DNA from: a virus
Taxonomy: Duplodnaviria; Caudoviricetes
Reading direction: 5' to 3' (one strand)
Virus record (IMG/VR): IMGVR_UViG_3300034062_002237
Coordinates: 1-28,215 of that record
Length of the DNA stretch: 28,215 nt
Below the pieces are notes generated by a model, which was not told the origin of the DNA, searched no databases, and saw nothing but the letters and a program-made list of their open reading frames with translations. Positions 5,024 to 8,118 of the stretch are shown here, piece after piece. Position numbers and translations under genes: made by a program. Every line of letters begins with the position of its first letter. Position 1 is the first letter of the stretch.

Positions 5024-5788
5024 TTATTTTTTCAACGAATCAAGCATTACTTCAATGCTTTTTCGAGCTTTTTTGTTTAATCCATAAACATATTTTCTTT
5101 GTTTTAGTCCTCGCAATCTTTCAAGTTTTTCTTTATCGGCATTTCCTTGAACGTTATTTCCTCTAATTCTAATAATTCCGGGATATATTTTTTCTAATAC
5201 GTCAAACCTTCTAGTTCCGTGTCTGTGCCAAGCCGTTACAGGATGCAGACGCTCTCCGTTTGGCAAAATATAAAAATCAACTTCCTTGCCATCAATTTCT
5301 ATGGCGTTGGTTGCTTTGTAAATTGTTCCGCTGTTTCCGGCGGACTCGTCTGCATAAGTGATTACAAATTTTATTTTTGGAAATTTGTGCTTCATATAAA
5401 AAAACAAAAGACCAATAACGCGGCTTTCGCTAAATTTTGGCAAATCGTCATGTAGCCACATTCTATCGAATTCGCACCATTCTCCATCTTTGCAAATATT
5501 AGAAAGATTGCCCTTTAGTTTTGGCCTTATTCCGTATCCTAATTGTATTACTCCCCTTCCGTCACAAATTAAAAGGGAGCAAAATGAGTTGGATGTCGGC
5601 TTATGGCTGTAGTGATGTTGGGAAATTATCGGGTCGGCGACTTTTTTTTCTACCTCAACAAACCAAATGTCGCCATCTGAAGCCCCGATAATTTCTTCCT
5701 CAAACAAGGAACTGCTCCTTATGAGCTTTCTTCCCCTTGGGTAAATTGTCGGCGCGGGTAGATTTGATAATTTGGCCTGAAAACACAT
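5024..5788 (-). CDS. mom: Mom-family (GNAT-fold) adenine modification enzyme
   Basis: IISQHHYSHK, GVIQLGYG, EFDRMWLHD...ESRVI and ITYAD..GNSGTIYKATN motifs. Confidence 0.8.
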   Translation of the reverse strand: MCFQAKLSNLPAPTIYPRGRKLIRSSSLFEEEIIGASDGDIWFVEVEKKVADPIISQHHYSHKPTSNSFCSLLICDGRGVIQLGYGIRPKLKGNLSNICKDGEWCEFDRMWLHDDLPKFSESRVIGLLFFYMKHKFPKIKFVITYADESAGNSGTIYKATNAIEIDGKEVDFYILPNGERLHPVTAWHRHGTRRFDVLEKIYPGIIRIRGNNVQGNADKEKLERLRGLKQRKYVYGLNKKARKSIEVMLDSLKK

Positions 5789-6344: not shown

Positions 6345-6352
6345 AAGGTGGA

Positions 6353-6381
6353 TTTGACAACTGACTTGGGTGTTCGTTCAA
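6353..6381 (-). promoter_or_regulatory. repeated phage promoter, copy 3 (TTGAAC-N17-GTCAAA)
   Basis: 17-nt spacer; 8 nt upstream of ATG 6344. Confidence 0.8.
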
Positions 6382-6402
6382 AAAAAATTTGTTTGACTTT
6401 AT

Positions 6403-6431
6403 TTGAACGCCAGATAGGTTCCGCTGTCAAT
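6403..6431 (+). promoter_or_regulatory. repeated phage promoter, copy 4 (TTGAAC-N17-GTCAAT)
   Basis: back-to-back with copy 3; points into non-coding structured DNA. Confidence 0.75.
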
Positions 6432-6436
6432 AGACA

Positions 6437-6770
6437 AAGACGAACGGCACGTCTGACATATTTGCCGAACAACAAGCCGTAGGTATGCAAGGATAAAACC
6501 GCCGAACGCTTGGAAAATCCGCCCCAAGGAGCGATTGAGATAGCCGCCTTGGGAATTCATCAGGTGATGATAAAGTGCCAGACTTGTTCTGGGAGATGCG
6601 TTCACTAGCCATCGGTCATAGATTGGCAACCTCGGAGCCGTAGTGAACAAGGCACAACTAACCATGCGCGAAAACGTCAGGGATAGGTTGTTCAGCCATA
6701 TTTTTAGCCCCTTCGCAGGGGCGAGATGTGGGCAAACTCCCATCGCTCTCCCGTAGGGATAGCGTTGATC
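6437..6770 (+). ncRNA. putative structured non-coding RNA (~330 nt)
   Basis: own promoter; helices CCCAAGG/CCTTGGG, GTGCC/GGCAC, CCAGA/TCTGG, GTTCACTA/TAGTGAAC, GCCCCT/AGGGGC and two more 3' hairpins; no credible ORF. Confidence 0.55.
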
Positions 6771-6856
6771 ATATATCGACTTATAGCCATTTATATCCAT
6801 TTATAAACCAAATTTATTAGAAATAACTATAATCTTCCGAAATAAATAAAAAAAGA

Positions 6857-6885
6857 TTGAACATGTTTAAAAAATGTGAGTCTAT
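6857..6885 (+). promoter_or_regulatory. repeated phage promoter, copy 5 (TTGAAC-N17-GTCTAT)
   Basis: preceded by an A-tract; 35 nt upstream of the tmRNA-like RNA. Confidence 0.8.
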
Positions 6886-6920
6886 ACATACATAGCAGTT
6901 TTGGTTCTTTTAAATTTTAA

Positions 6921-6986
6921 GGGGGAGAGAATTGGATTCGACGAACGGCCATGCCTTCGCACTCGGTTTCGATACCGACTCCTCCA
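6921..6986 (+). ncRNA. mini tmRNA-like RNA: tRNA-like domain only
   Basis: acceptor stem GGGGGAG/CTCCTCC with G3-U70 and discriminator A; GGATTCGAC tmRNA D-loop signature; short helix CGAA-c-GGC(CAT)GCC-TTCG; T-arm TCGGT-TTCGAT-ACCGA. Confidence 0.75.
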
Positions 6987-6992
6987 GATTTT

Positions 6993-7428
6993 GACTCCTG
7001 CCATTTTAGACGCAAGTTCATGGTGGACATCAGGGGTCTCGCTGCGGTCATTGAGGGCATCAATGTGAGTAAAGCGTTCCGGCGGGTTCGCATCACGGGG
7101 ATGAGCGACCTGAGCCGTAGCTCCATTTTTTCACGTTCCTGTGTCGGACGAAGTATTCGCAGAACGCAGATTGGGAACTCCCGACGAGCAAGTATCCGTA
7201 GAAAAGTGCGAAAGGACATCAACACGGATAGCCGCGCCGATGCGATGATGCTCTGTGTGGCCACACAACATCTAGCTCGGAAGAAAGTCCCCAAGGACAT
7301 CCAGCCATAATTTTTGTTGGGCAGCGTGACAACTTCACGGCCAGTTCAGCCCTCTACATCCTCGTGATGAATGGCGTCTGGCGGGACGGGCGGGGCATGA
7401 GCCTCTTAGACTCCCGAAAGCCCCATGC
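6993..7428 (+). ncRNA. putative structured RNA(s) downstream of the mini-tmRNA
   Basis: GC-richer than flanks; helices GACTCCTG/CAGGGGTC, CATTGA/TCAATG, GTCGG/CCGAC, TATCCGT/ACGGATA, CGTGA/TCACG, GGGGC/GCCCC; the ORFs in both directions look spurious. Confidence 0.5.
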
Positions 7429-7456
7429 TTGACTTTTATTTGTTTCTATATAAAAT
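7429..7456 (+). promoter_or_regulatory. sigma70-type promoter of the HNH gene
   Basis: TTGACT-N16-TAAAAT, 8 nt before ATG 7465. Confidence 0.55.
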
Positions 7457-7464
7457 ATTCAGAA

Positions 7465-8118
7465 ATGAAACTATTAAAAGTTGCAACAGGAATGCCGCTC
7501 GGAACCTTTAAACACGGAGACAATCACCCAATCCATGGAGAAAAAAGAAAATTTTACAAATATTCAAACGGAAAAGAGCTTTGGTATAAAAAAGAAACAT
7601 TTGAAGAATATTTAAAAAAACAAAGGCGAAATTCAAAAATATACAATAAGCGATTAAGAGAAACGAATTACAAAAAATATATAAACAATAAAAAGAAATA
7701 TCGAAACAAAGTTAAGTCAGCAATTTATAATCGCTTGTGGAGGCAAAAAAACAAAGAAAAATACAATGCCAACATGAGAGAATATTATAAAAGAAAAAAA
7801 CAAGAGCCTCAATATCGAATAAAATTAAATCTGCGATCAAGACTCAAAGATGCATTAAAAAGATCATTTTCCGGGAAGCCGTCGCTGTCATTGGTTGGAT
7901 GTTCTATTGAATTTCTAAAAAAACACTTGGAATCAAAGTGGACTGATGGAATGTCTTGGGAAAATTACGGAAAGTGGCATATTGACCACATACTGCCATG
8001 CAGTAGTTTTAATTTAACAATTCCAGCCCAACAAGAGAAATGCTTTAACTGGAAAAATCTTCAGCCGTTGTGGGCGAAAGACAACATTAAGAAGGGCGCA
8101 AAAATTTTGACCACATAG
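7465..8118 (+). CDS. HNH endonuclease (free-standing, homing-type)
   Basis: GMSWENYGKWHIDHILPC...NLQPLWAKDNIKKG; very basic N-terminus; AT-rich relative to neighbours; ATG 7465 preferred over TTG 7429. Confidence 0.85.
   Translation: MKLLKVATGMPLGTFKHGDNHPIHGEKRKFYKYSNGKELWYKKETFEEYLKKQRRNSKIYNKRLRETNYKKYINNKKKYRNKVKSAIYNRLWRQKNKEKYNANMREYYKRKKQEPQYRIKLNLRSRLKDALKRSFSGKPSLSLVGCSIEFLKKHLESKWTDGMSWENYGKWHIDHILPCSSFNLTIPAQQEKCFNWKNLQPLWAKDNIKKGAKILTT

Follow-up and report, generated by a model that had tools for sequence, protein, structure and literature searches.

The window analysed here, a 28,215-nucleotide stretch of viral DNA, is a fragment of a tailed-phage genome whose genes include those for a terminase, DnaB, dCMP deaminase, Mom and tail proteins. 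The closest named cellular relatives of its DnaB belong mostly to Verrucomicrobiota, and from their 35–38% identity to the phage protein the host may be a member of that phylum. The subject of this work is a 66-nt element (below, the mini) within a 1.1-kb stretch (6345–7428) that is flanked by divergent genes and in which none of the tested open reading frames has a family match. Two reading frames laid over the mini, 6917–7300 (minus strand) and 6951–7310 (plus strand), were rejected as genes because they match no PHROG or Pfam family and also span units that are exchanged among relatives. Nearby lie a Mom-family DNA-modification gene (5024–5788, minus) and an endonuclease VII-like gene (7429–8118, plus); in a tblastn search, matches to the Mom gene were, among the clade loci listed, confined to copies of the same phage. 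A second non-coding block, at 6403–6730, has its own copy of the promoter-like motif described below at its head. Many clade loci, as well as L125 and L149, have conserved segments of this block; Rfam found no match in it, and it may represent either an origin or a structured RNA of larger size. The features of the region and the motif copies of the window are as follows.

1731, 3828 and 6353, minus strand: copies of the promoter-like motif, from the motif scan of the window
6403, 6857, 8154, 9893 and 12354, plus strand: further copies of the motif, from the same scan
6857–6885, plus strand: promoter-like motif TTGAAC-N17-GTCTAT, recognized from its copies; putatively active
6886–6920, plus strand: putative 5' leader with a U-rich end, from the sequence; predicted to be removed by RNase P
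6921–6986, plus strand: tag-less mini-tmRNA of 66 nt, consisting of the tRNA-like domain (TLD) only; from sequence, pairing check, covariance model, family and lineage
6928–6941, plus strand: stemless D-loop, ending in GGAUUCGA
6942–6959, plus strand: helix 2a with a CAU loop (4 bp, a bulged C, 3 bp), in the place of the tmRNA pseudoknots and tag ORF
6960–6962, plus strand: 3-nt linker CAC, the middle A of which maps to the SmpB-contact base A334
6963–6978, plus strand: probable T-arm with a 5-bp T-stem (6963–6967/6974–6978), a 6-nt loop and a U53-A61 closing pair
6993–7038, plus strand: predicted hairpin in the second array slot, from folding; the related locus L476 has a different element there
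7041–7121, plus strand: module B, an uncatalogued small RNA with an outer stem, an invariant internal loop (CANUGAGGG / AGCGACCUGA) and a variable hairpin
7135–7425, plus strand: further predicted structured non-coding units, from folding; largely near-identical in L476

The sequence at 6921–6986 is the TLD of a tmRNA without the tag region. As the initial annotation had described, the acceptor stem (6921–6927/6979–6985) is paired at 7/7 positions and carries the alanine identity elements G3.U70 (6923/6983) and A73 (6986). The stemless D-loop, helix 2 with its CAU loop and the CAC linker were likewise found where they had been placed, and CCA is indeed absent from the DNA, the bases that follow A73 being GAU. 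The TLD halves stand in standard order, i.e. the RNA is unpermuted, with helix 2 closed directly and no tag ORF. The available part of PMC8363625 names A15, U17, G19 and A334 as the SmpB-contact bases of the tmRNA TLD, and D-loop positions 6936, 6938 and 6940 would correspond by motif to the first three of these. The T-arm turned out to be less clear-cut. Its 6-nt loop and U-A closing pair are where the initial annotation had put them, but folding energy prefers a pairing of the D-loop with the T-arm (−26.2 versus −23.3 kcal/mol for the TLD fold), and the T-stem of the window sequence has a pair probability of 0.06. Hence, the support for this T-arm comes from comparison and not from energy. 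The alternative folds vary between the variants of the window's lineage, the compensatory changes follow the TLD fold, and one compensatory pair supports the T-stem of the lineage, the loop of which has 6 nt instead of the usual 7.

A search with the D-loop/T-loop pattern gave one occurrence in the window versus 0.00 expected from 100 shuffles. We also built a covariance model from 67 relatives, with the window sequence excluded. Its sole strong match in the 28 kb is the mini, at 42.9 bits (E 6.8e-8), a score far under the 64–76 bits of typical members. Rfam and ARAGORN, which the initial annotation had proposed as checks, both failed to detect the element: ARAGORN called no tRNA and no tmRNA in the window, and Rfam gave no match in the window, in 10 related loci or in one array. 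Several other identities were considered and rejected. A standard tmRNA (RF00023) does not fit since an 18-nt hairpin replaces the mRNA-like domain and neither program makes a call, and a permuted two-piece tmRNA does not fit the standard order of the halves, the single model match in the window and the missing ARAGORN tmRNA call. A tRNA-Ala would have a D-stem and an anticodon arm, both of which are missing here. An attachment site (attP) in ssrA was dismissed because both TLD halves are present and no integrase was found, neither in the 41 ORFs scanned in the window nor in 39 further ORFs of the record G001 (estimated to be 68% complete).

The lineage of the window was assembled from 80 viral loci collected via DnaB, 12 of which carry the mini. 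Added to two loci known from the viral scans and to the 13 loci of a metagenome scan, these 12 give 11 distinct variants of 60–67 nt. The acceptor stem is uniform across them, as it was part of the search pattern. Helix 2 varies in sequence and length with compensation, the closing pair U53-A61 becomes C-G in 3/11 variants, and 99% of the cells of the lineage alignment are paired, with a covariation score of 0.333 versus 0.109. CCA is encoded in 7 of the 11. The 6-nt T-loop is shared by 10/11 variants and is, for this reason, a trait of the lineage and not fresh damage; in the wider family described below it occurs in only 4 of 169 members among the matches listed. Three variants combine the D-loop GGAUUCGA with a UUCG T-loop; in seven others, the D-loop is AGGUUCGA and the T-loop UGC(A/G). 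It looks like the 18/55 contact of the elbow changes jointly (G/U to A/G) while G19-C56 is kept, the register of this comparison being our assignment. The bases that would contact SmpB persist while the elbow drifts: UUCGAC is present in 12/12 lineage matches that were found without requiring it, and the middle A of the linker, which lies outside the search patterns, is present in 167 of the 169 listed members of the wider family.

These data bear on the possibility that the element is a non-functional deletion remnant, an attachment-site scar or an assembly artefact, which is extremely improbable and already largely refuted. The initial annotation had considered that related phages might carry a full tmRNA here, which would make the mini a recent deletion remnant, but a full tmRNA was found in 0/80 related-phage loci. 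The identical element sequence recurs in several separate contigs, the 11 variants show compensatory changes, and in the wider family an integrase or recombinase is the nearest ORF in just 2/134 cases downstream and 1/137 upstream (ORFs of at least 700 aa left out). What can be said in favour of a remnant is that the window variant is degenerate and optional, and that such cases do exist. A short ssrA at L381:3823–3899, the sole ssrA-like match in an Achromobacter metagenome-assembled genome (MAG), looks like a collapsed gene and is probably an assembly deletion; it is a warning for anyone counting minis in MAGs.

In the wider family, a loose viral scan returned at least 120 loci; 30 of those listed had a perfect acceptor stem, and the other 90 of the 120 listed were dropped as chance matches. 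Four tighter viral scans gave 26, 8, at least 120 and 57 loci. Among the matches listed, 207 of 210 new viral loci were retained when pairing in the acceptor and T-stem was required, the patterns having fixed only four acceptor pairs. In a GTDB scan 42 of 96 loci passed the pairing filter and 54 were dropped as chance. Altogether, these exact-pattern scans yielded at least 280 loci with at least 208 distinct sequences. Stricter filtering and thinning to less than 90% identity among the matches listed left a working set of 169. The patterns themselves demanded G3.U70 and A73, whose presence in 169/169 is therefore no evidence; acceptor and T-stem pairing served as filters, and the independent features are only helix 2a and the linker. 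Pairs 2–7 of helix 2a, which were not filtered, are paired in 99, 96, 92, 86, 83 and 77% of these 169 listed members versus 39–49% in shuffled sequences, and a 150-row alignment has a covariation score of 0.751 versus 0.169 when shuffled and at most 0.139 when slid. Lengths of the 169 listed members peak at 77–81 nt (helix 2a, an A-rich loop and a second hairpin); 24 of them have 72 nt or fewer, mostly with a single hairpin like that of the window, and 67 encode CCA. The covarying homologues for which the initial annotation had called thus exist in number, and the 11 lineage variants compensate as well. They support its claim of a tag-less TLD RNA; the alanine-identity and SmpB-contact features of this RNA appear to be under selection.

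Neighbourhoods of the family are diverse. There is no constant protein neighbour, the largest shared family, DnaB, being found at 15/145 loci with enough flank among the matches listed; a tRNA lies within 500 nt at 37 of these 145 loci, and an ARAGORN call overlaps the element at three. In five loci (L160, L169, L228, L297, L326) the genes on either side of the mini are those for the prohead protease and the major capsid protein, which is a late, highly expressed position. The record G015, a 136-kb phage, has two different minis (L282, L287). Three Nostoc genomes have 81-nt minis (L335, L350, L377), and the one that was checked also has a full tmRNA. In Verrucomicrobiota, model matches of 73–78 nt occur in 6/151 genomes, two of which have three copies each (L445–L454; five of the six matches listed are minis with an AUCG-type T-loop). 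Three further Verrucomicrobiota matches that had been taken for short minis were rejected as chance.

We also scanned 50 carrier records, picked mostly by length, many of which are incomplete, so that a gene missing from them is not proven absent. SmpB was found in 0/50, including 0/23 of those at least 90% complete, Pth in 0/50 and an RF-1/ArfB domain in 1/50. The RF00023 model scored above cut-off in 47/50 carriers, always with matches of 64–112 nt, and found a full tmRNA in none of the 50; the three records it missed are those of the window lineage. The TLD model recovers the RNA of mycobacteriophage DS6A (JN698994, 28478–28557) at 63.7 bits. With 68–76 bits it also finds members of the family, none of them annotated, in five cultured phages: Shaeky, pSt2308, Jojan60, LuckySocke and BRock. 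A blastn search of the element against cultured phages gave 14 chance-level records, none of them covering 80%.

The element at 6921–6986 belongs to the DS6A-type tag-less tmRNAs; the type is already known, and the window holds a minimal variant of it. The initial annotation named tag-less forms from some protist mitochondria but missed this phage precedent, which is listed as 'TLD only' in the available part of PMC4131195. Both RNAs are phage-borne, one-piece, unpermuted TLDs with G3.U70, A73, a stemless D-loop, a self-closed helix 2, a 3-nt linker and, less certainly in the window RNA, a T-arm, and the same model scores both. They differ in length (66 versus 80 nt) and in the T-arm, where the window RNA has the 6-nt loop and the U-A closing pair; the DS6A RNA lies between protein genes, whereas the window RNA is part of a small-RNA array. 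Compared with the common class of 75–83 nt, the window RNA lacks the A-rich internal loop and the second hairpin. With the standard tmRNA (SsrA, RF00023), which measures about 350 nt in three verrucomicrobial genomes, it shares the acceptor identity, D-loop motif, helix 2a, linker and probably the T-arm, but not the pseudoknots, resume codon, tag ORF and stop codon. The CDS-less organellar tmRNAs also have no tag frame, and according to the available part of PMC11915505 the mitochondrial ones are mostly permuted, those of Mallomonadaceae plastids have genes of about 65 bp, the size of the window RNA, and CDS-less organellar forms persist alongside SmpB. They appear to be the organelle's own tmRNA, whereas the window RNA would be an extra, phage copy beside an intact host system.

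The initial annotation overlooked that the element is part of an array with other small RNAs. The promoter it assigned to 6857–6885 is one copy of a phage-wide motif, TTGAAC-N17-GTC(T/A)AT, which occurs 8 times in the window with at most one mismatch versus 0.20 expected, several copies lying just upstream of gene starts. The motif is a putative promoter; the site itself fails a sigma-70 scan. It may resemble the promoters read by ECF or heat-shock sigma factors. A scan of ORFs from the window and G001 revealed no sigma factor, and the motif showed no enrichment over a reversed control in 101 verrucomicrobial genomes, the candidate hosts. It precedes the mini in 9/11 lineage variants, with a spacing of 17–36 nt in relatives, and heads 36 distinct arrays, in which rows of small structured RNAs separated by U-rich spacers follow it. 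Sixteen of these begin with the mini, 17 with module B, two with module C and one with a tRNA; 10 of the 36 had been selected for mini presence, and among the other 26 the mini is found in 6 and absent from 20. Where present, it is always the first unit (16/16).

Module B has covarying stems on either side of a 7x7 internal loop that is invariant, and was found as 41 distinct sequences, including at 28/120 loci of a motif scan (L462–L665; L671–L673). Its alignment is 94% paired with a covariation score of 0.797 versus 0.201, values that are inflated because the 35 rows were pairing-filtered. In 3/401 verrucomicrobial genomes (four pattern matches) it adjoins tRNA genes. Module C is a three-way RNA of about 80 nt (L471–L534, e.g. 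L475:7058–7136; 19 distinct sequences). Its terminal stem of 10 bp has CCA at the end in most cases, and its hairpins have a UG(C/A)AAA loop and a G-rich loop. Modules D and E are recurrent structured units (arrays of L483, L484, L512 and L459). E is long, with several hairpins enclosed by a terminal stem, and its start motif occurs near 7317 of the window; C and D are absent from the window. Rfam matched none of modules B, C, D and E. The idea that modules B–E are copies of rRNA segments was dropped, as B and C had no convincing match in one verrucomicrobial 16S/23S rRNA. Arrays of tRNAs in phages and mobile elements are similar in having clustered small RNAs with short spacers, and can include a tmRNA as well as further structured RNAs (PMC5966550, available part); unlike them, the window-type array never holds more than one tRNA-like unit, and its remaining units are uncatalogued RNAs that swap between close relatives. 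In the open-access literature searched, we found no report of such an array or of the prevalence of tag-less tmRNAs in phages; what is new here is the mini as the optional first unit of a motif-led array of interchangeable small RNAs.

The invariable first place of the mini in the arrays that hold it would also suit a mere processing signal, a tRNA-like structure that guides RNase P and 3' trimming to release the downstream RNAs, and the tRNA that takes its place in L476 is likewise first. We regard this as very improbable: 19/36 arrays start directly with module B or C, and such a signal would need neither the alanine identity nor the SmpB-contact bases.

The L476 locus is near-identical to the window on either side of the slot, and a tRNA(CAU), for Met or lysidine-Ile, replaces the mini exactly (L476:6190–6264). 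The mini is an accessory that arrays can lack or exchange for a tRNA or other small RNAs. In other clade loci a tRNA-CAU is located elsewhere within or near the array region. The exchange behind the same motif, together with an array composition that differs from phage to phage, is what one would expect if the mini were a counter-defence decoy or replacement, acting against host RNases or modifiers of tmRNA or tRNA acceptor ends in an array of interchangeable RNA baits. Phage tRNAs have been proposed to counter tRNA-depleting defences (PMC10264068, available part), and CoCoNuT defence systems have SmpB-like domains predicted to bind tmRNA (PMC11090510, available part). The latter link is a prediction, however; the mini has no anticodon loop to offer as bait to anticodon nucleases, and modules B and C resemble no part of the one verrucomicrobial 16S/23S rRNA convincingly. 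Overall, we consider a decoy role unlikely.

The reading that we prefer, though with no more than an even chance of being right, is that the DS6A-type tag-less tmRNA becomes alanylated, loads host SmpB and competes with host trans-translation, thus suppressing tagging. The mini would be transcribed first in the small-RNA array from the phage motif and matured by host RNase P and the CCA-adding enzyme, 7/11 lineage variants supplying their own CCA. AlaRS would then charge it via G3.U70 and A73, and the conserved contact bases would let it bind SmpB and EF-Tu of the host; the SmpB would have to be the host's because the phage has none. SmpB would be titrated and non-stop ribosomes occupied by an RNA that adds an alanine but provides no tag and no stop codon. 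As a result, tagging and degradation of truncated proteins by the host should fall. Competition with host tmRNA and less tagging would be the most direct consequence, in agreement with the one reported experiment, in which the DS6A form inhibited endogenous tmRNA in E. coli (Mao et al. 2009, as cited in the available part of PMC11915505). A molecule similar to the DS6A RNA is described as a strong inhibitor of tmRNA, possibly through titration of SmpB (PMC4131195, available part).

In favour of a competitor are the architecture shared with this reported inhibitor, the retention of the SmpB-contact bases while the elbow drifts, the carriers' lack of SmpB and Pth and near lack of RF-1/ArfB domains, and the absence of a full tmRNA from the 50 carriers and 80 clade loci. 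The small size of the element, its promoter-proximal place and its having no fixed protein partner point the same way. Against it, the sole functional datum is second-hand and heterologous and concerns an 80-nt relative. Inhibition accounts less well than a role in counter-defence or in promoting translation for the tRNAs near 37/145 listed members and for the tRNA swap in L476, the window T-arm is not favoured by energy, the window element scores well below typical members, and the mini is missing from most of the arrays that were chosen regardless of it (20/26).

Moreover, reduced tagging would be expected under a rival reading too, in which the RNA serves tag-free rescue: Ala-TLD with SmpB would take over the stalled chain and extend it by template-free poly-Ala until host Pth, ArfA or ArfB frees the ribosome. 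Such tailing would aid translation under stress, much as RqcH tailing does. With SmpB, the TLD can enter ribosomes and hand on alanine in the absence of a template, yielding polyalanine in vitro although no mRNA is present (Shimizu and Ueda 2006, cited in the available parts of PMC3929946 and PMC2481249). The many members located among tRNAs, including those of cultured phages, the seeming retention of G19-C56 while 18/55 co-changes (in the assigned register) and the persistence of CDS-less organellar tmRNAs together with SmpB are consistent with rescue. We nevertheless consider it unlikely, as a stop codon cannot be reached, carriers seldom bring a release factor or Pth, the DS6A-type RNA is reported to be inhibitory, and the shortened, drifting T-loop suggests relaxed demands on ribosome passage. 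The competitor, rescue and decoy readings are mutually compatible, and the computation presented here separates none of them.

Tag-less tmRNA is a common phage gene, with at least 208 distinct sequences found here versus the 9 'standard, no CDS' entries among the 97,179 sequences of a curated tmRNA database (PMC11915505, available part); some of the 208 may be among these 9 or among its 79 phage entries. ARAGORN almost never calls such genes (3/145 listed loci overlapped). Since five cultured phages carry the mini unannotated, LuckySocke on Streptomyces lividans (OR725497; mini at L432:1496–1573) among them, the in vivo role of a TLD-only tmRNA is directly testable by knockout. With 60–67 nt and a 6-nt T-loop, the window lineage illustrates how small a TLD can become. 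The array puts the mini beside uncatalogued RNAs, one of which, module B, is also found beside verrucomicrobial tRNA genes. A wider and doubtful reading is that these phages possess a modular 'RNA toolkit' (the TLD, tRNA-CAU and at least three uncatalogued RNAs behind a non-sigma-70 motif), in which each unit would bait or replace a part of host translation or of anti-phage defence, and the TLD, together with host SmpB, might add alanine tails without a template or serve to divert defence nucleases directed at tmRNA. If the array is indeed a set of baits or stand-ins for translation components, it would constitute a new layer of RNA-based host takeover or counter-defence.
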